In this document: piece by piece, positions 2,639-13,510 of the stretch
How the letters are laid out: each line of letters begins with the position of its first letter
Position numbering within the stretch: the stretch's first letter is position 1
Source: a virus
Lineage: Duplodnaviria; Caudoviricetes
IMG/VR virus record: IMGVR_UViG_3300037692_000289
Location: 1-24,815 of that record
DNA length: 24,815 bases
Direction: 5' to 3' (one strand)
Translations under genes and position numbers: made by a program
Notes under the pieces: generated by a model
Seen by the model: the letters and a program-made list of their open reading frames with translations, nothing else
Told to the model about the DNA's origin: nothing
Database searches by the model: none

Positions 2639-2865
2639 CTCAAGCCACTCCTTTCTTGCCTAACCGCCTCGCGGCTACGCCTTAGAATCCTGTTCCAAGC
2701 TCCGTCGTGTCTTGCAGGCGTTGACTGCAATAAAATCCTCACCGTCTTCTCTGGCGGCCAGCCTGTCTTACTCGCTTTCACAACCAGCCATTCTAAGATT
2801 GCGTCTTTGCTACACCCAGATATCCTTACCAAGACATCGAGCTTCTCTTCCATGCTGTATTTCAT
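2635..2865 (-). CDS. Hypothetical protein (76 aa)
   Basis: AAGGAGG RBS; stop coupled to the next start. Confidence 0.7.
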   Translation of the reverse strand: MKYSMEEKLDVLVRISGCSKDAILEWLVVKASKTGWPPEKTVRILLQSTPARHDGAWNRILRRSREAVRQERSGLR

Positions 2866-2880
2866 CTCAAGCCTCCTTTA

Positions 2881-2936
2881 CCAAGGGACTATTCCCTTGG
2901 GTGAAGGAACCTCCTCGCGGAAGTCCTTCACCCAAG
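2881..2936. other. Two overlapping inverted repeats in an intergenic gap
   Basis: CCAAGGGA-CTAT-TCCCTTGG (2881-2900) overlaps a perfect 13-bp stem CTTGGGTGAAGGA...TCCTTCACCCAAG (2896-2936). Confidence 0.7.
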
Positions 2937-2938
2937 AG

Positions 2939-3112
2939 CTAGGCTTGCTCTGCTATCCCCTGTTGCCTGGCCGTTTCCGCCTTCATCAAAGCGATGTTCG
3001 CCTCGGTCAGAAGCTCCCTAAGCGGTCCTGTCGGCGTCGCTAGGATAAGCCAGTCTATTGCTTGCTGCGCCTCGTACATCCTTCTGTTCCACTCATGCAC
3101 TCTGTCTTTCAT
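2939..3112 (-). CDS. Small hypothetical protein (57 aa, MKDRVHEWNRRMYEAQQ...), not in the ORF track
   Basis: Translated by hand; GGAGG RBS; first gene after the promoter at 3173-3201. Confidence 0.7.
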   Translation of the reverse strand: MKDRVHEWNRRMYEAQQAIDWLILATPTGPLRELLTEANIALMKAETARQQGIAEQA

Positions 3113-3172
3113 CTCAGAGCCTCCATTTACCTGAGTGCGTTTCCCTGGGTCGCACCCTCGCCCATTTCACCC

Positions 3173-3201
3173 ATCATCCCATATCCGCGGGCGGGTGTCA
3201 A
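3173..3201 (-). promoter_or_regulatory. sigma70-type promoter
   Basis: Minus strand TTGACA-CCCGCCCGCGGATATGG(17 bp)-GATGAT with TGn extension; -35 and spacer nearly match the 977-1005 promoter. Confidence 0.6.
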
Positions 3202-3221
3202 CACAGTTGTGCGCTCCCTTC

Positions 3222-3502
3222 CCGCACCACCACCCCTCCCCCCACCCCTCCCCCAACAACACACACCCCCCCGTCTATCCCCGTCCAGGTACGCCAGACT
3301 GGGGCACCTCTCCGGGGATTTCCTCTCTCCAGTTCCCTTACCACCACAGTCCCTTTCCCTCTACTTAAAAAAAGTAAAAAAAAATAAGAAGAAGAGAAGA
3401 GGCTTTGAAATTCCCCGGGAGTTTGCCTCAGTACCACGTTATTTTGACGAGAGAGAGGGGGGGGGGCCTGTTGTTGTTGTGGTGGTGGGGGTTGTTGTGG
3501 TC
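3222..3502. repeat. Large degenerate inverted repeat centred on an A-tract; candidate replication origin
   Basis: 3298-3322 ACTGGGGCACCTCTCCGGGGATTTC mirrors 3407-3432 GAAATTCCCCGGGAGTTTGCCTCAGT; outer CAACAAC/poly-C arm mirrors the poly-G/GTTGTTG arm; A-tract at 3367-3384. The origin function is inference. Confidence 0.6.
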
Positions 3503-3542
3503 CCCCACCTTCGACCCCGCGTCCCGCGCCCTCCCCGCTCCT

Positions 3543-3851
3543 TCAAGCCCCGACCCCTCCCGGCACGCGCTCCGCTAGCTCGCTCAGCCAGGCGTCAGGC
3601 TCTTCCCTCTGCACTTGGATTGCTTGTATCAGGAAACTCAGCGGCCGTCCACTTGGGCTCTCCCCTCGCTCCACAAAGAACACCCACTCAAGCCCTAGCT
3701 CCTCTGCCCGTGCCCGCGTGAGCCTACCCCTTCCCTGCGCCAGCCCGAACCCCTTCCCTGCTCGCCACCTTCGCGAAATCTCTACGTCGTCTAGGCCACT
3801 GGCCAGTACCATCGCATCACGCGCTGTCAAATACCGCCTTCTCCGTGTCAT
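3543..3851 (-). CDS. Hypothetical protein (102 aa)
   Basis: ATG sits in the shared GGGGCTCGAAATG start motif. Confidence 0.65.
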   Translation of the reverse strand: MTRRRRYLTARDAMVLASGLDDVEISRRWRAGKGFGLAQGRGRLTRARAEELGLEWVFFVERGESPSGRPLSFLIQAIQVQREEPDAWLSELAERVPGGVGA

Positions 3852-3868
3852 TTCGAGCCCCCCGAAAT

Positions 3869-3908
3869 CCTGGTCAAGGCGCCAGGGGAGAGGGGTTCTC
3901 CCCTCCCC
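3869..3908 (-). other. Tandem intergenic hairpins
   Basis: Minus strand GGGGAGGGGG-AGAA-CCCCTCTCCCC followed by CCTGG-N8-CCAGG. Confidence 0.55.
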
Positions 3909-3917
3909 GCTGTGCCC

Positions 3918-4154
3918 TTAGTGCTGTTTCACAGCTGCCGCTACCTCTAAACCAAGATTCAACGTCGGTCCGAACCACATGCTTCGACGCGTGTCTTTGT
4001 ACACATCGACCACGTATCCTGTTAGCGTGGGCAGCGCGCTCCACGCATACGCATTACCTCTATACACTGCGAACCCCTCGAAGCGAGGATCGCTTTCCGT
4101 GTCTACCCCAGTGAGTGTAACAGTCATACGCTCGCCTGTGAATAAGTTTTTCAT
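3918..4154 (-). CDS. Hypothetical protein (78 aa)
   Basis: TAGGAGCCCGAAATG start context. Confidence 0.7.
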   Translation of the reverse strand: MKNLFTGERMTVTLTGVDTESDPRFEGFAVYRGNAYAWSALPTLTGYVVDVYKDTRRSMWFGPTLNLGLEVAAAVKQH

Positions 4155-4163
4155 TTCGGGCTC

Positions 4164-4382
4164 CTAAGCTTGCTCGGGCTGTACCGTTGCCGTAAATATA
4201 CTAAGACCCGAGGATGGGAGCGTCCGTAGCTCTTCTGCGTCTAGCTCTTTGTACCTTCCAAAAGTTCCCCAGGCACTCTCTGCAGCGACCAGTGCCATTG
4301 TGCTATCGGCGTCAAAGGCAACTATTCCTATAAACTCACCTATGCTGTTCTTGACTAAAAACGCGCTTTGCTGGATCTTCAT
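4164..4382 (-). CDS. Hypothetical protein (72 aa)
   Basis: TAGGGGCTCGAAATG start context; its stop overlaps the next RBS. Confidence 0.7.
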   Translation of the reverse strand: MKIQQSAFLVKNSIGEFIGIVAFDADSTMALVAAESAWGTFGRYKELDAEELRTLPSSGLSIFTATVQPEQA

Positions 4383-4400
4383 TTCGAGCCCCTATAAATC

Positions 4401-4468
4401 GCCTAGAACGCCCCAGGCTGCCCACGCGAACCCGCGTGCTAGGGTAGCCCGTTTCCGAGCTACCCTAA
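4401..4468 (-). other. Three consecutive hairpins filling the intergenic gap
   Basis: Minus strand TAGGGTAGCTCG-GAAA-CGGGCTACCCTA, CACGCG-GGTT-CGCGTG and GCCTGGG-GCGT-TCTAGGC; mismatches read as G-U only on the minus strand. Confidence 0.6.
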
Positions 4469-4472
4469 CCCG

Positions 4473-5030
4473 CTACTCGTCGTTTAACAAGGCGTCTAGC
4501 GCATCATCCGCCGCGCGTGCTGGTGCGCGTTCGGCTTTAATCTCAGCCAATGCCATTTGCACCGACCGCGCTTGTGCGAGGTACCGCAAGTTCGCCTCCA
4601 CATCCCCCCCGCGCTCGCGCACGCTCGCCTGGACGAGTTTCTCAACGCCCGCTTCATCCCGCTTCGTCGCTCGCCCGATTGCTAGGCGGATATCCGTCAA
4701 GCTCTCAACCCGAGGCGCACGCGCTGCCCGCTCCGGCGCAACCGTCGTAGCTCCGCTGTTCAAATGCTCAACCTTCCGCGACATCCTCTCCCATTTCATC
4801 TGGTTCCGCACGGGTTCGGGGATGATCGCCCCGTCCTTGTCCGTCCGTCCAATCGCGGCGGTATCTATGACCATTACCTGGCTATACCCTGCTACCAAGG
4901 CGCGCGCGTTGTTCTCTGCGCTCGTTGAGTCCAGCCTCAACACGATCGGCTGATCAATCCCCGCTACGCGGTAGGTGACCGTGTTCGCTTCCGCGTCGTG
5001 CGTGTAAACAACTGTTTGGTTCGATTTCAT
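4473..5030 (-). CDS. Hypothetical early protein (about 185 aa), first gene after the leftward sigma54 promoter; probable paralog of 267..917
   Basis: Long ORF; start placed at ATG5030 (GGGGGCTCAAATG context) rather than 5042. Confidence 0.85.
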   Translation of the reverse strand: MKSNQTVVYTHDAEANTVTYRVAGIDQPIVLRLDSTSAENNARALVAGYSQVMVIDTAAIGRTDKDGAIIPEPVRNQMKWERMSRKVEHLNSGATTVAPERAARAPRVESLTDIRLAIGRATKRDEAGVEKLVQASVRERGGDVEANLRYLAQARSVQMALAEIKAERAPARAADDALDALLNDE

Positions 5031-5074
5031 TTGAGCCCCCATGTTCGGCGGACCATTCCGCCATGCCTGATATG

Positions 5075-5091
5075 TAGCAATGCGCGTGCCA
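5075..5091 (-). promoter_or_regulatory. sigma54 (RpoN) -24/-12 promoter, leftward
   Basis: Minus strand TGGCAC-GCGCA-TTGCTA is an exact match to TGGCAC-N5-TTGCW; predicted +1 near 5065, 35 nt before ATG5030. Confidence 0.8.
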
Positions 5092-5107
5092 CATGCCTGC
5101 CCACACC

Positions 5108-5120
5108 TAACCTATTGATT
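5108..5120 (-). promoter_or_regulatory. IHF binding site
   Basis: Minus strand AATCAATAGGTTA matches WATCAANNNNTTR exactly; centred between the two sigma54 elements. Confidence 0.7.
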
Positions 5121-5136
5121 CCATGGAGTTCCCCCA

Positions 5137-5153
5137 TGGCACGCTAGTTGCTA
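5137..5153 (+). promoter_or_regulatory. sigma54 (RpoN) -24/-12 promoter, rightward
   Basis: TGGCAC-GCTAG-TTGCTA, exact consensus; predicted +1 near 5163. Confidence 0.75.
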
Positions 5154-5158
5154 GGCCA

Positions 5159-5257
5159 GTCGAAATCTCGCCACCTACGTCGAAACGTCGCCAGCCCGCG
5201 CCTAACCCGTTGAATTTATTGCCTAACCTGCATCACGGGGGTGTCGAAATCTCGCCA
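5159..5257. repeat. Three copies of GTCGAAA(TC/CG)TCGCCA; candidate enhancer (UAS) or operator sites
   Basis: Copies at 5159-5173, 5179-5193 (20-bp period) and 5243-5257; quasi-palindromic (TGTCG-N6-CGCCA). Confidence 0.7.
5203..5215 (-). promoter_or_regulatory. Second IHF-like site
   Basis: Minus strand ATTCAACGGGTTA, one mismatch to WATCAANNNNTTR; lies between repeat copies 2 and 3. Confidence 0.45.
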
Positions 5258-5654
5258 GCCCCTGATGTGTTGCGTCCACGCAACTGGTTGAGGCGTGTTG
5301 TTGCGGAAATGCCATGCATCAAGCTATCCCGGATTGTGAAATCTCTTGGTGCGACGCAGCACCGTCGGACGGTGGCGCACCATGAGAGTGCATTCCGCCA
5401 GCCGCCTCACCATCCCACGATGTGAAACCCACCTGGTGAAACCAAGCACCACCATCCGGGACGCTCTGTTGCACCGCACCACCAGCCCCCGTGACCCGTC
5501 CGCGCCGTCCGCCTCACTTTCGAGGGGGTGGGGGGCAATTCCAAGGCGAGAAAAAAAAGACGAACACAGTCTGCTGTGCTGCGCCGTTGGGGATAATTCC
5601 CGGGGGATACCATAGAATACTCCCCGGTGGTTTCCCCTCGCGCCACGTCCCCGC

Positions 5655-5683
5655 TTGCCCCCGCCCGCCCCCTCGCGTACAAT
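5655..5683 (+). promoter_or_regulatory. sigma70-type promoter for the packaging/virion operon
   Basis: TTGCCC-17 bp-TACAAT ending 31 bp before ATG5715; the spacer contains CCGCCCGC like the two leftward promoters. Confidence 0.6.
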
Positions 5684-5714
5684 TCCGCGATAGGTCAAGG
5701 ACCAAGGGGCACAG

Positions 5715-6233
5715 ATGGAACTTGGGGAATTGGTGAGCGAGGGGAAGCCCGGTTTGGCGAAGGTTCGGTATAGTCACCTCGATATGATTGATACGCTGAT
5801 CTCGCAGCCGTGGGTGAGCCAGAACGACCTGGCGCTGCGCTACGGGTATACGCCAGGGTGGGTTAGTACGGTGATGGCGAGTGACGCTTTCCAAGCGGCG
5901 CTGGCAGCCCGCCGCGAGGAAGTAGTCAACCCCGCGATGAAGGCCTCGCTGGAGGAGCGCTTCCGCGCGGTTACGGTGCAGAGTTTGACGAGGCTGGCGG
6001 AAGAGCTGGACAAGCCAGTGTGCAGCCCGAATGTGATGCTGAGGGCGGCGGAGTTAGGGGCGAAGAGCCTCGGCCTGGGGGGCCACGCTCCGCCGCCGCC
6101 CGCTCCTCCGGGGGACAGCTTGGCGAGGCTGGCGGATCGCTTGATCGCTCTGCAATCGAACGTGCGCCAGGGCACGACGTATGAGGGGCGGGGGGAGCCG
6201 GTGCTGGTCGAGGGGGAAGACACAAGCCGATGA
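5715..6233 (+). CDS. Putative terminase small subunit (N-terminal HTH)
   Basis: HTH-like SQNDLALRYGYTPGWVSTVM followed by helical segments; first gene of the late operon; AAGGGG RBS. The TerS call is from architecture and position. Confidence 0.6.
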   Translation: MELGELVSEGKPGLAKVRYSHLDMIDTLISQPWVSQNDLALRYGYTPGWVSTVMASDAFQAALAARREEVVNPAMKASLEERFRAVTVQSLTRLAEELDKPVCSPNVMLRAAELGAKSLGLGGHAPPPPAPPGDSLARLADRLIALQSNVRQGTTYEGRGEPVLVEGEDTSR

Positions 6234-6976: not shown

Positions 6977-7290
6977 TCCGGGTCACGTTTAAGCCGCTTG
7001 CCGTCGGCGAGATCCGGAAAGAGACCTTCTCGTTCCTCAGTGCTCTCGCAGTGGGCGAGACGATCTCGACGCAGAGTGTGGTTGCCTCCGTCTACAGCGG
7101 CACGGACGCTACCCCCTCTGACCTGGTTAGTGGCTCGGCCAGCGCTTCGGGGGCGGTCGTAACCCAGGCGCTCGATGGCACCGCTGCCGTCCTCGGCGTG
7201 ATCTACCATCTCGTCTGCACTATCACGACCTCCGCCTCGCAGACACTCCAGGCGGGTGGCTACCTCGCAGTTGTGCCTGACACACCCTGA
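6973..7290 (+). CDS. Small beta-rich virion protein, fibre/adaptor-like
   Basis: Ala/Ser/Thr/Val-rich; LAVGETIST...GVIYHLVCTITTS pattern recalled from small phage adaptor proteins; coupled to the 703-aa gene. Confidence 0.55.
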   Translation: MIRVTFKPLAVGEIRKETFSFLSALAVGETISTQSVVASVYSGTDATPSDLVSGSASASGAVVTQALDGTAAVLGVIYHLVCTITTSASQTLQAGGYLAVVPDTP

Positions 7291-9401
7291 TGTCCAACAC
7301 GAACCGCCCGCACGGGTTTCACCCAGTCTCCTACCTCAACGGGGCGCCCTGGAACGGGCAGGCCCGCACGTACTACATCCCAGCGGGGGACGGTGACGCT
7401 TACTTCGCAGGGGACCCGGTTAAGACGCAGGCAGGCGCCTCCGCCGGGATGGCTGCCGGGCAGATGTCGGTGGGAGTGGCCAGGGTAGCTAAAGCGGCTG
7501 GAACCGACGTAGTGCGGGGTGTGGCGATTGCCTTCGGCGCAAACCCCGCGGACCCTTCGGCTAGCAGCATCCCGGCGGTGAAGCGCAGCTCCTACCTCGT
7601 CGCTGTGGTGGATGACCCTTTGGTACTCTTCGAGGTCCAGGGAGATAATGAGGGTATTCTCGAAGCGACGGTGATTGGCAAGTTCGCCAGCTTCAACGTC
7701 GCGACGCCAGACTCCGCCGGGTTCAGCGCCAGCACGCTCAACACCGCGAGTATCGACAGCGACTCTGGGCTTCCCCTCCGCATCCTCGGCCTTGCGAGCG
7801 GAACTTTTGGCCCCTACTGCCGCTTCCTCGTGGTGTGGAACTTGCACGAGCTGCAGGGCGGTACGACGACGGAAGCAGTGGTGGGGGACCAGGCAGCGAA
7901 CACTGTGTACGCTGGCCCAGAGAGCGGGGCGGATGACGCTCCGGAGTTTCGGGAACTTGTTCTGGAGGACTTGCCTAGCGAGGTTCAGACCCTCGTCACT
8001 TCGCCGGTGGCTGGCGGTCGTGTCGCGGCGGATGGAACGTTGCTTGCATCGACAGGCCTGGTTGGTGCGGACCGTGTCGGCCTTGGCGACTACACCGCCA
8101 CGATCGACGGCACAGCGCAGACGATTGGCGGCTTCATCCAGATGTGGCCGGTTGCGACGCCTTCAGGGCAGTCAGGGGATGGCGGATTGGGGATTAGCGC
8201 GTTCAAGGCTTACAGCGGCAATGCGGTAGCAGAGACGGACGCCACAGATCAAATCCAGTTCTATCGCTCCTCTGTATACAACAAAGTCTATGCGCTTGGC
8301 ACCGCCACTGACAACATCTGGATTCATGACATTGATGACTGGACTGCAACGGCTACCCAGGAAGATCCTGGATCTGACCCGATTCGTACCGCCGGCCAAT
8401 CAGGAGCTATGGACTACGAAGGTGAGGTTATTTGGCTCTCTGGTGACTCCACTCCATATTCAGTTCGCGCCTATGTCATAGCCACTGACACGCACGTTGA
8501 TTTTAGTACTACAGCGGATCACATTGTCATGGGAGCTAGGGACGGAAACCTCATGGTGCACGAGGGTAGTAGTACTAAGTCGTTTCTCCCTAACTTAGGG
8601 ACGTCGGCTATGGGGTCTGCCGTCGATACCTGGGCGATTGACACCAATAACTCGATTGATTTAACTGTTACGTGGGACAAGAACTCTTACGGTTGGACTT
8701 GGGCTAGCAACAATCTTTACGCGTTCCAGTTTGGAAACGCAGTATTTGACACGCATGCGTTTCCGTATGAGATAGATGCATCCGGGTCAGTCCTACAAGT
8801 TAACCAGGGAGATTGTCCGCCTGTTTATGACTCTTTGCGCCACGCGCTTCTAATATCACTGCGTCGAGATGCCTCTACGATTCAACCTGGAATATGGCGC
8901 TATTCTGGGTGGGTTCCAGGTGTAGATAATTCAGGCCACTGGGAACGACTTACTTCTGGCCACAGACACCTTTCAATTGTCCATGATCCGGTGATGGATC
9001 TCATAGCGGCAGTGAATTATTACGAGGAAGACGAGGTATATCGATACACGGCACAGGACGGCCTATTAATCGACACGGTGTCAGTTGGAGACACGACTGC
9101 TCCGGACAACGAGCAAGTAGATTATGACCTTGATCAATCACGGCGGTGCTTCTATCTAGATAACTCTTTCTACATTGGAGGCGCAAAAGGGGCGACACAC
9201 TACATCATCAGAATCGACTACAACGGCGACGAAATAACCGACATCAGCGGATCTGGTGTGGCCGCGGTATCCAGCGTCCTAGTCGCGCAGACCAGCGTCA
9301 TCAACGCCACGACGGCGGGCATTCAGATCTACCGCGTTGGCGGGTCGGATCCTCAAGTACGGGCGGACGCGCAGTTCAGCGTCCACATAGGCTTCAAGTA
9401 A
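7290..9401 (+). CDS. Virion protein: decoration-like N-terminal domain, fibre linker and putative receptor-binding beta-rich domain (703 aa)
   Basis: aa 1-190 align by eye with all of 15007..15597; DQAANTVYAGPESGADDAPEFRELVLEDLP is a fibre-type linker; aromatic/Asp-rich C-terminal region. Confidence 0.75.
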   Translation: MSNTNRPHGFHPVSYLNGAPWNGQARTYYIPAGDGDAYFAGDPVKTQAGASAGMAAGQMSVGVARVAKAAGTDVVRGVAIAFGANPADPSASSIPAVKRSSYLVAVVDDPLVLFEVQGDNEGILEATVIGKFASFNVATPDSAGFSASTLNTASIDSDSGLPLRILGLASGTFGPYCRFLVVWNLHELQGGTTTEAVVGDQAANTVYAGPESGADDAPEFRELVLEDLPSEVQTLVTSPVAGGRVAADGTLLASTGLVGADRVGLGDYTATIDGTAQTIGGFIQMWPVATPSGQSGDGGLGISAFKAYSGNAVAETDATDQIQFYRSSVYNKVYALGTATDNIWIHDIDDWTATATQEDPGSDPIRTAGQSGAMDYEGEVIWLSGDSTPYSVRAYVIATDTHVDFSTTADHIVMGARDGNLMVHEGSSTKSFLPNLGTSAMGSAVDTWAIDTNNSIDLTVTWDKNSYGWTWASNNLYAFQFGNAVFDTHAFPYEIDASGSVLQVNQGDCPPVYDSLRHALLISLRRDASTIQPGIWRYSGWVPGVDNSGHWERLTSGHRHLSIVHDPVMDLIAAVNYYEEDEVYRYTAQDGLLIDTVSVGDTTAPDNEQVDYDLDQSRRCFYLDNSFYIGGAKGATHYIIRIDYNGDEITDISGSGVAAVSSVLVAQTSVINATTAGIQIYRVGGSDPQVRADAQFSVHIGFK

Positions 9402-10867
9402 TGGAACACCGCCCAGTCAAGCTAACGGCCGACCTCGTCGAAGCCCTCGCGGGAGTCTTCCTCTCCCCTCGCTACGACGAGCCACGGCCTACGCCGCCCT
9501 TCCACCGGGAGGCCTGGGAACTCTACTGCAGCCCCCACACCCAGGTCGCCTGCATCGCTCCCCGTGACCATGCGAAGTCAACGGGCCTGACCTTCGACTA
9601 TGGGCTGGCGGAGGTCCTCTTCCGCACAAGCGACTACGTCATCATTATTGGAAGCACGGAAGACAAGGCCGGCGAACAGCTGGGCAACCTCTCTGACGAG
9701 CTTCACGATAATGAAGAGCTTCGGCGGGAGTTCGGCGTGAAGAGCTTCGAGTCGGACACTAAGCACGAGATTATCGTGCGGATGCAAGATGACTGGCGCT
9801 TCCGCATCCTAGCCCGCGGGGCAGAGCAGAAGATCCGGGGCTCTCTTTGGAAGGGCAAGAGGCCAAACCTCATCATCTGCGATGATATGGAGGACGATGA
9901 GCAGGTTGAGAACAAGGACAGGCGGACGAAGTTCCGCCGGTGGTTCTTCCGCGCGGCGAAGCAAGCTCTCTCCCAGAGCGGCAAGATCCGCGTCCACGGG
10001 ACGATCCTGCATGAGGATAGCCTCCTGAGCCGCATCCGGCGCATGAAGAGCTGGAACCACGTGTTCTATAAAGCGCACAACAGCTTCGACGACTTCGGCG
10101 GCCTCCTGTGGCCCGAGCGCTGGACGGAGGAGCGGCTTCGCCTCCGCCGCCAGGAGTTCATCGAGGACGGCGACTCTGGGGGGTACAGTCAAGAGTTCCT
10201 CAACGACCCGCAGGACAACAGTGATTCGTTCCTTCGCAAGGACGACTTCATCCCGATGACGGATGATGATGCGAAGTGTTGGAAGACAGTGCATGCCGCC
10301 GCGGACTTCGCCGTCTCCAAGGCCGACATGGCTAACCGGACTAGCTTCACCGTCGGGGGGAAGTGTGTGAGGAACCTGCTTCACTTCCTCGACTTTCGTG
10401 TTGGGCGGTGGGACCCAGTGGAATGGATCGAGGAAATGTTTTCGATCCAGAAGCGGCACAGCCCAGAGGTCTTCTGGGTTGAGGACGGCGTGATTTGGCA
10501 GGCGGTGAAGCGTATCGTCTTCGAAGAGATGCATAAGAGGGATATCTGGATCAACATCGAGGCGGTCCCGAGTATCCGAGACAAAGCGACAAGGGGGACG
10601 AGCTTGCGGAAGCGGATGCGAGCTGGCGGGACGCGGTGGAATACGCTGGCGGAAGGGTACGAAGACGCGCGGGCGGAGATGCTTCGCTTCACCGGGAATG
10701 CCGCCGCCCGCTTGGATGACCAATTCGACTCCGCCGCCCTCCTCAGCCTCGGCTTCGATCGCTCTGCCGTGGTGGAGGAGGAGGATGAGATCCCTGAGGA
10801 AGAGTGGATGATGCGTCGGGAAGATCCCCGGCGGAGCGATGGTCGCAGTTTGGTAACCGGCTACTAA
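9401..10867 (+). CDS. terL: Terminase large subunit
   Basis: Walker A-like IAPRDHAKST, Walker B LIICDDME, coupling motif VHGT, nuclease motifs AADFA and DDQFDS. Confidence 0.95.
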   Translation: MEHRPVKLTADLVEALAGVFLSPRYDEPRPTPPFHREAWELYCSPHTQVACIAPRDHAKSTGLTFDYGLAEVLFRTSDYVIIIGSTEDKAGEQLGNLSDELHDNEELRREFGVKSFESDTKHEIIVRMQDDWRFRILARGAEQKIRGSLWKGKRPNLIICDDMEDDEQVENKDRRTKFRRWFFRAAKQALSQSGKIRVHGTILHEDSLLSRIRRMKSWNHVFYKAHNSFDDFGGLLWPERWTEERLRLRRQEFIEDGDSGGYSQEFLNDPQDNSDSFLRKDDFIPMTDDDAKCWKTVHAAADFAVSKADMANRTSFTVGGKCVRNLLHFLDFRVGRWDPVEWIEEMFSIQKRHSPEVFWVEDGVIWQAVKRIVFEEMHKRDIWINIEAVPSIRDKATRGTSLRKRMRAGGTRWNTLAEGYEDARAEMLRFTGNAAARLDDQFDSAALLSLGFDRSAVVEEEDEIPEEEWMMRREDPRRSDGRSLVTGY

Positions 10868-12920: not shown

Positions 12921-13173
12921 CACACCTGAAGAGCAAGCGTTCAAGGACTGGTTGCTTAATCCAGTGACGAAGAAGCTGCGGGAAGCCGCTGAGAGGCGGA
13001 AGGAGACGCTGAAGGAAGAGTGGGCGTCAGGTTCCTTCACTGCGATGGAGCACTTCGGGACCGCGACACTGAACGCGAAAGCGATCGGGCGGGTGCAGGA
13101 GTTATCCTGGATAATTGAGCTAGACTTTACGGACCTTTACGAGGAGATGGAAATTGGACTCCGTCCAGAGTAG
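12904..13173 (+). CDS. Small hypothetical head-module protein (89 aa)
   Basis: ATG12904 after GGAGAAGG; FKDWLLNPVTK motif; lies between portal and GroES. Confidence 0.75.
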   Translation: MPELSSTPEEQAFKDWLLNPVTKKLREAAERRKETLKEEWASGSFTAMEHFGTATLNAKAIGRVQELSWIIELDFTDLYEEMEIGLRPE

Positions 13174-13510
13174 TGTGTTGAGCAACCCCTCGGGGCTTCG
13201 CCCGGCAGGTCGGGCTGTGCTTGTGCTGCCTTACGAGCCAGAATTTGACCGGGCGAGGCGTGAGAGTAACTTGATTATCCCCCAAACCGTGCGGGAAAGC
13301 ACGATGATGCTGGAGAATCGCGCAGTCGTCATCGCAGTAGGTGCGGCGGCGTGGGATGATGAGAAAGAGCCGCGCGCACGCGTAGGGGACTTAGTCCTCA
13401 TCACGAAATTCGCGGGCTTCGTGAGCCTCGGGGCGGATGGGAAGATCTATCGCCTTGTGAATGACAGAGACATTTTTTGCGTAATCGAGAAGGAGGCCGA
13501 ACATGGCTGA
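13154..13510 (+). CDS. groES: GroES/Cpn10-family co-chaperonin
   Basis: LRPAGRAVLV, mobile-loop SNLIIP, AVVIAVG, RVGDLVLITKFAG and YRLVNDRDIFCVI match Cpn10 motifs; exact start (TTG13154 or TTG13178) uncertain. Confidence 0.9.
   Translation: MDSVQSSVLSNPSGLRPAGRAVLVLPYEPEFDRARRESNLIIPQTVRESTMMLENRAVVIAVGAAAWDDEKEPRARVGDLVLITKFAGFVSLGADGKIYRLVNDRDIFCVIEKEAEHG

Follow-up and report, generated by a model that had tools for sequence, protein, structure and literature searches.

A likely one-way sigma-54 early promoter with host pilin-type activator sites in an uncultured tailed phage

Phage region and relatives

The control region described here is likely a one-way sigma-54 early promoter under the control of a pilus activator of the host that is not PilR; the phage family appears to swap promoter classes at this place. 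The case is built on sequence comparison. The window, i.e. the whole stretch of DNA that was analysed, comprises 24,815 bases, and its record has a completeness of 54%. All motifs lie in a 680-bp gap between a leftward and a rightward gene arm. The features were as follows:

4473-5030, minus strand: first leftward (early) gene, 185 aa, function unknown, of a family kept at the same position across relatives
5047-5062, minus strand: short hairpin where the leftward transcript is predicted to begin (+1 at 5065)
5075-5091, minus strand: leftward sigma-54 -24/-12 box (GG at 5090-5089, GC at 5078-5077), likely the real early promoter
5108-5120, minus strand: exact IHF consensus match at -43 to -55 relative to the leftward start
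5137-5153, plus strand: rightward sigma-54 box with no gene behind it, followed after 5 nt by activator site 1
5158-5173, no strand assigned: activator site 1, of the 16-bp MSHA-pilin type (score 12.5, rank 2), at -93 to -108 relative to the leftward start
5178-5193, no strand assigned: activator site 2, a weak match (score 6.2, rank 6) that is not significant alone, at a spacing of 20 bp from site 1
5203-5215, minus strand: second IHF-like site with one mismatch
5242-5257, no strand assigned: activator site 3, the strongest, -177 to -192, score 18.2, rank 1
5376-5392, no strand assigned: NtrC-type box GCAC-N7-GTGC, about -311 to -327, an addition to the first-pass annotation
5524-5558, plus strand: G-run followed by an A-run, conserved upstream of the first rightward gene
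5655-5683, plus strand: sigma-70-like promoter candidate TTGCCC-17-TACAAT for the rightward virion genes
5715-6233, plus strand: first rightward gene, 172 aa, kept upstream of the terminase large subunit (9401-10867)

The plus strand of the window encodes a large terminase, an SU10-like portal, a capsid-like gene and GroES, and the minus strand carries small genes to which no function was assigned. Near-identical DNA was present in sediment and soil metagenome runs. Relatives were gathered by searches with the terminase and the first rightward gene, which gave 73, 2 and 80 viral loci and 15 genome-bin contigs. At least 650 bases upstream of the rightward gene were available in 103 loci (window included), and these were reduced to 65 distinct regions.

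The most likely start of the first leftward gene is the ATG at 5030, not the one at 5042. Its 185-aa product had no match in Pfam or PHROGs, nothing significant among PDB sequences (best E 0.63) and no match in annotated phages. No close relatives of the gene were found in the viral and metagenome contigs searched, and the best value of an atlas search (0.76) is a lead at most. The first rightward gene gave no family match and no useful match to PDB sequences, and the genome contigs searched held no close relatives of it. Judged by position only, it would be the small terminase. The sigma-70-like candidate in front of it is weak on its own (1 found and 0.7 expected by shuffling); a strict TTG[AC]C-17/19-TAnnnT pattern occurred upstream of the rightward arm in 10 of the 65 relatives.

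Motifs and chance expectation

The first-pass annotation had described two outward-facing sigma-54 boxes, an IHF site between them and three repeats, and all of these were found in the 24,815 bases at the places it gave. The pattern TGGCAC-N5-TTGCW occurred exactly twice, at 5076-5091 (minus strand) and 5137-5152 (plus strand), with a chance expectation of ~0.025 per window (a figure that comes from just 3 matches in 3 Mb simulated with a third-order Markov model). The sole exact WATCAA-N4-TTR of the window was the one at 5108-5120 (minus strand), and its midpoint, 5114, is also the midpoint of the box pair; the chance expectation was 0.31 per window and 0.008 per 680 bp. The repeat GTCGAAAnnTCGCCA was found at 5159, 5179 and 5243 and never in 3 Mb of simulated sequence, the pattern having been defined post hoc. 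The GG and TGC elements of the sigma-54 consensus used here are confirmed in PMC3844500.

Outward-facing box pairs with the correct N5 spacer were found at 106 loci in IMG/VR. A control with an N6 spacer gave only 3. Only two of the 106 loci had any tblastn match to the 22 window proteins, both of them weak terminase matches; hence, outward-facing sigma-54 pairs are a general phage feature. Many of the loci listed (L001-L012 and L051-L106) were arrays of several boxes in both orientations. In these unrelated viral contigs (L001-L106), some pairs were located near contig ends or by alternating purine-pyrimidine tracts.

The leftward box as a likely early promoter

The leftward box has GG at -24 and TGC at -12 with the fixed spacing, activator-type sites upstream (-93 to -128 and -177 to -192) and an IHF site between these sites and the promoter. 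In the available text of PMC3844500, activator sites of sigma-54 promoters are placed ~70-150 bp upstream.

We placed +1 by rule for every sigmaE- and sigma-54-type motif and then looked for a ribosome-binding site with an ATG. Such a start was found 20-90 nt after +1 behind 17 of 37 leftward boxes, 1 of 27 rightward boxes and 32 of 49 sigmaE motifs (leftward versus rightward boxes: p=1.6e-4). In the window, it is found 35 nt after the predicted +1 of the leftward box. A leftward GG-N10-GC box with 33-50 nt between predicted +1 and ATG was present in 13 of the 65 relatives, window included (this tally, like that of 26 relatives given below, was counted by hand from the motif output). No sigma-70 or sigmaE promoter candidate was found for the leftward arm of the window.

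The gap between the IHF site and the left box was 14-16 nt in the window, L130, L152, L178 and, on the opposite strand, L217. The two IHF sites of the window are 95 bp apart, and L152 has a second exact site 93 bp from the first. Strain variants with 26-27 substitutions in 246 nt left GG, GC and the IHF consensus positions unchanged; the changes fell in repeats 1-2, the hairpin, spacers and flanks. As we read the alignment, the spacing of the left box is also preserved where it contains a pair of indels. One variant contig skips 5174-5239, meaning that activator site 2 and the second IHF-like site are missing from it. Taken with the gene spacing, the constant IHF offset supports the earlier proposal that the leftward box is a sigma-54-type early promoter with IHF and upstream activator sites.

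The first-pass annotation had also expected the activator to come from the host. In agreement with this, a search of 22 relatives, of which 14 are near complete, gave no PF00158 domain above the cut-off, and neither HTH_8 nor Sigma54_DBD domains were found in the window or in the 4 near-complete relatives covered per search.

The hairpin stem begins 2-3 nt after +1 in the window, L130, L152, L164 and L178. As a discriminator between left and right it was weak, because many rightward boxes also fold early stems. In L234, L243, L251 and L257, orphan sigma-54 boxes adjoin sigma-70-like early promoters (read by eye).

Host pilin promoters with a matching site

One relative with the two-box layout, L280, sits in a Rhodocyclaceae bin, and this family was therefore chosen for the host search. 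A sigma-54 box with the repeat 60-90 nt upstream was sought in 151 Rhodocyclaceae genomes. The single match lay before a prepilin-type gene, whose family (MSHA-type pilin-like) was present in 70 of 81 genomes. Thirty pilin-like loci were fetched, and 14 of them had a sigma-54 box and enough upstream DNA. All 14 carried TGTCGA-N4-TCGACA 40-110 nt upstream of the box. The 16-bp host sites are often tandem, 19-21 bp apart; sites 1 and 2 of the window are spaced by 20 bp, and site 1 is 67 nt from GG.

A matrix made from the host sites ranked repeat 3 of the window first (18.2) and repeat 1 second (12.5), followed by a score of 6.7 elsewhere; repeat 2 reached 6.2. Scores of 18.2, 12.5 and 6.2 are expected by chance 0.017, 0.2 and 3.9 times per window and 0.0005, 0.005 and 0.11 times per 680 bp, in a test that was not blind because the seed was chosen with knowledge of the phage motif. 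In the right half, all three phage sites read GCCA where the host consensus has GACA.

In the two genomes examined, a regulator of the REC-AAA+(GAFTGA)-HTH type heads the host pilus cluster, ~17 kb from the pilin gene. The cluster genes resemble MshL, GspE/PilB and GspF. A gene resembling histidine kinases is oriented divergently to the pilin gene. Site and regulator co-occurred as 15/0/0/5 in 20 genomes (p=6e-5 without kinship correction), and 4 of the 15 co-occurring genomes were outside the matrix training set. These 20 belong to the 30 loci; 9 were left out of the regulator search and 1 was too short. The candidate activator scored below the cut-off for all 20 NCBIfam families listed and was present in 48 of 121 genomes sampled from the order, a tally that includes the unpublished genome G198. 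We propose TGTCGA-N4-TCGACA as the predicted binding site of this MSHA-cluster activator. The 16-bp site was found before the regulator gene in only 1 of 24 orthologs, which does not support autoregulation; as the site is not conserved there, the pairing of site and regulator rests on synteny and co-occurrence. Side matches in Betaproteobacteria (L375, L376 and L362-L367) showed an MSHA-type cluster that includes a sigma-54 activator of its own as well as an adenylate/guanylate cyclase and a kinase-like gene.

A second matrix was made from 17 pilA-type promoters with a 15-bp site, TGACG-N5-CGTCA. By analogy with the available text of PMC6058289, this site is likely read by PilR. The window repeats were not among its top matches, and the best score in the control region was 6.0. 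The matrix did pick sites in L130, L164, L178, L226, L235, L236, L240, L246, L248, L258 and L280. Pilus-type sites of either length were present in 17 of 25 sigma-54-only, 4 of 18 sigmaE-only, 2 of 13 mixed and 0 of 7 relatives with neither promoter type. Among sigma-54-only relatives they were hence more frequent than in sigmaE-bearing ones (17/25 versus 6/31, p=3e-4). The site tallies cover 63 relatives, with L272 and L278 left out.

Genome bins often contain stray phage contigs. The 15 genome-bin contigs with terminase relatives were from many phyla; only 3 were Rhodocyclales-type and 1 was from Rhodoferax.

Two other candidates were dropped. A 17-bp palindrome of the L236 group occurred in 28 of 151 Rhodocyclaceae genomes, but the 21 loci inspected were scattered, many of them intragenic, and formed no regulon. 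PspF had been considered from a likeness of sites and was displaced by the host-derived match. L238 and L242 have another palindrome (TGTAAA/TTTACA-like) upstream and near the leftward box, which suggests a third host activator. At approximately L243:1990-2010, a CRP-type TGTGA-N6-TCACA palindrome lies upstream of a sigma-70-like early promoter.

Promoter classes among relatives

Sister phages probably use a stress-sigma (sigmaE-type) promoter at the equivalent position. GGAAC-N17-GTC was found 23-50 nt before the ATG in 26 of the 65 relatives, with no overlap with the 13 sigma-54 relatives. The motif fits the E. coli sigmaE consensus GGAACTT-16-TCAAA (PMC1312014). In a candidate host family, the motif stood before rpoE in 1 of 17 genomes, as against 2 of 17 controls, and thus found no support from this host comparison. 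A sigma-70-like promoter was seen at the same place in L143, L234, L243, L251 and L257 (read by eye).

The classes can also lie on top of each other. At L217:3415-3440, a sigmaE and a sigma-54 motif are nested within 25 bp and have nearly the same predicted start, and the two motifs of L130 overlap in much the same way, with an 18-nt spacer. The first rightward protein of the window grouped with the sigmaE relatives in a quick tree (support 90, not starred). Because the early gene and control region of the window are nevertheless of the sigma-54 type, this suggests a swapped module.

The sigmaE-type promoters (L110, L111, L113, L114, L118, L121 and 20 more) were often tandem, ~80-100 bp apart. 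Further copies were seen deeper in the early arm of L118, L149, L160, L176, L181, L201 and L220.

An NtrC-type box

A matrix derived from host glnA upstream regions had its top window match at 5376-5392 (16.9, next 9.3). GCAC-N7-GTGC was found in 23 of 25 host glnA upstream regions and in 0 of 25 controls; a strict sigma-54 box was present in only 3 of the 25 glnA regions. Among the relatives, 22 of 63 carried the box, including 13 of the 18 sigmaE-only ones.

The rightward box and alternative readings

The right box is a perfect consensus (score 18.1, the best plus-strand match in the window), and its core positions were unchanged in strain variants. Of 26 rightward boxes scored, 13 had a pilus-type site downstream, 10 of them at 3-5 nt and 3 at 12 nt. 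In the window, activator site 1 covers -5 to +11 of the predicted right start. Host promoters rarely have such an extra box (0 of 14 MSHA-type pilin-like and 1 of 17 pilA-type promoters), so the right box appears to be a phage addition under selection. According to the available text of PMC3844500, secondary sigma-54 sites can speed the polymerase search or repress an adjacent promoter. The right box is likely an extra docking or occluding site of this kind rather than a gene promoter, although it may give rise to a non-coding transcript running rightward.

An alternative is that gene control is secondary. The boxes and sites would then act as a decoy that titrates sigma-54, pilus activators and NtrC while the genome replicates, shutting down pilin synthesis and thereby removing the receptor and excluding superinfection. 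The main support comes from activator sites that are kept without a sigma-54 promoter: among sigmaE-only relatives, 4 of 18 have the pilus-type site and, as given above, most have the NtrC-type box. Boxes surround the sites in any orientation and number in relatives, arrays occur in unrelated viral contigs, and the extra box is what host promoters lack. However, the leftward box keeps a promoter-like distance to the ribosome-binding site and a constant IHF offset, the window has no other candidate early promoter, and pilus sites are enriched where sigma-54 boxes occur. As the main function we consider titration unlikely, although it is compatible with a one-way promoter and the two are not exclusive.

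The first-pass annotation had favoured a symmetric two-way switch with mutually exclusive directions. Both boxes would be productive and share IHF and the activator, the right one yielding a leader or non-coding RNA towards the virion genes, perhaps with activation from the neighbouring sites downstream of it. The quality and constancy of the right box speak for it. So does its spacing: where an activator site follows the box, the distance is 3-5 nt in 10 of 13 cases, and activation from downstream enhancers is reported for FleQ and FlbD. The symmetry did not hold up, however: 26 of 27 right boxes, that of the window among them, have no ribosome-binding site and ATG behind them, and site 1 overlaps the right start. 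The IHF site is at the exact midpoint in the window (gaps 16/16), but this centring is particular to the window, the only one of eight two-box genomes to show it. In the eight two-box relatives with an exact IHF site between the boxes, the gaps were 16/16 in the window, 28-29/39 in six and 28/4 in one. L130, L152 and L178 have a left box with IHF at the conserved distance (14-15 nt) but no right box, some relatives have convergent or tandem boxes, and an Rfam search of 2800-6000 gave no match. In contrast to a divergent productive pair of the hycA/hypA type, there is no gene for each box, and the geometry is not conserved. We regard a two-way switch as quite improbable.

There is a slim chance that the repeats are operators of a phage regulator, e.g. 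the small HTH-like gene at 1857-2234, and that their likeness to host sites is a convergence on a GTC-N8-GAC theme. The shared deviation of all phage sites from the host consensus fits this reading, as do the related small HTH-like gene in relatives and the proposed FleQ consensus, which shares a 14-bp outline. Against it, the 20-bp spacing and the distance to GG match host promoters, other relatives carry a second host-type site (pilA), and neither HTH_8 nor Sigma54_DBD turned up in the window or in the 4 near-complete relatives per search.

A genome-end function (DNA entry, end protection or packaging) instead of gene control is hardly likely at all: the region is 390-450 bp from the conserved G-run/A-run upstream of the probable small terminase and several of the 106 unrelated pairs are near contig ends, but contig starts near the rightward gene share no single position, and sigmaE-type relatives have the same G-run without strong boxes.

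The G-run/A-run element itself is possibly a packaging or end signal. The contig starts did not reveal a fixed genome end at the G-run. Beside it, at 5424-5551, the summed contig depth was 6-10 times that of the flanks in three of four runs; as evidence for a terminus this was dismissed, since the sum counts many variant contigs that share the segment.

Proposed mechanism

We consider it probable that the region works as an early promoter in one direction only, gated by a pilus activator of the host and tuned by the right box. The leftward box would recruit sigma-54 RNA polymerase from the host, and repeats 1-3 would be bound by the phosphorylated host activator of the MSHA-type pilus. From there, it would loop over the IHF-bent DNA, and the leftward early genes would start near 5065. 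The candidate for this activator is the REC-AAA+-HTH response regulator at the head of an MSHA-type pilus cluster in Betaproteobacteria. The right box, packed against activator site 1, may capture polymerase or damp the enhancer. Because the early promoter bears host pilin-type sites, infection would likely start only when the host pilus activator is on. The motifs, their conservation and spacing, the likeness to sites of host pilin promoters and the joint occurrence of site and regulator in hosts were observed; from them we infer which activator and host are involved, that binding and transcription take place, what the right box does and that the pilus is a possible receptor.

A wider reading is tentative. 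The DNA before the first early gene may be an exchangeable sensor of host state, and members of the family would read the envelope-stress sigma, sigma-54 with PilR, sigma-54 with the MSHA-pilus activator (the window) or plain sigma-70. The window phage would fire only in pilus-signalling cells, perhaps triggered by its own attachment, and the extra box might then trap polymerase and activator, stop pilin synthesis and exclude later phages.

Comparison with known systems

Pseudomonas phage YuA uses sigma-54 promoters (PMC10914365, citing Ceyssens 2008) and thus resembles the window as a phage that uses host sigma-54 promoters. In contrast to the window with its identifiable activator sites, no activator or enhancer is named for YuA in the available text of PMC10914365. 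The first-pass annotation knew of no description of this architecture for a phage; sigma-54 promoters as such are already known in YuA. A phage promoter with host pilus-activator sites, or a swap between sigmaE and sigma-54, was not found in the literature searched, which covered few subscription papers. The sigma-54 promoters of YuA reportedly serve particle and lysis genes, whereas that of the window would serve the first early gene.

A close bacterial system is the control of pilA by PilS-PilR and sigma-54, where a two-component activator tied to pilus state acts with upstream palindromes (available text of PMC6058289). L226, L236, L248 and L280 carry the same 15-bp pilA-type site. The window repeats, in contrast, match the other, 16-bp MSHA-type pilin site and score poorly with the pilA matrix, and the host promoters do not have the extra inverted box of the window.

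Divergent bacterial sigma-54 pairs such as hycA/hypA (FhlA) and zraP/hydH (ZraR), described in the available text of PMC3844500, have outward -24/-12 boxes that share an activator, as in the window. There, both boxes drive genes and are >100 bp apart, whereas the window pair is 46 bp apart and its right box is geneless. The activator sites of the window also lie outside the box pair, unlike those of the bacterial pairs. In Caulobacter flaN/flbG with ftr and IHF, the flaN enhancers are reported to be downstream of one promoter. Compared with E. coli sigmaE promoters, the sister phages carry the consensus with the preferred spacing, and the window region does not have it.

If the main reading is true, a two-component signal of the host that conveys the state of a surface pilus controls whether infection takes its first step, i.e. 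there is a decision point inside the cell, apart from adsorption. Mutants in the activator or in rpoN would then be resistant after DNA entry, and enhancer sequences would predict host and receptor of uncultured phages. Moreover, a proposed site and target are supplied for an uncharacterised activator. The exchange of sigmaE, sigma-54 and sigma-70 at one position in one family would be a natural experiment on the choice of host state by phages.

Other features of the window

Right after the first early gene, an 18-bp inverted repeat (4434-4473) is a possible terminator or processing hairpin. The early arm also has the small HTH-like gene at 1857-2234, which has relatives in the family, an NrdR-like zinc-ribbon gene at 1002-1232 and, between early genes, a low-complexity G- and T-rich stretch (3198-3540) that could be an origin or a second control region. 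On the rightward side, the GroES co-chaperonin gene (13154-13510) lies among head genes. A 703-aa ORF with a low-GC stretch is inserted before the terminase (7290-9401); its homolog in relatives is found ~5.5 kb downstream of the terminase start.
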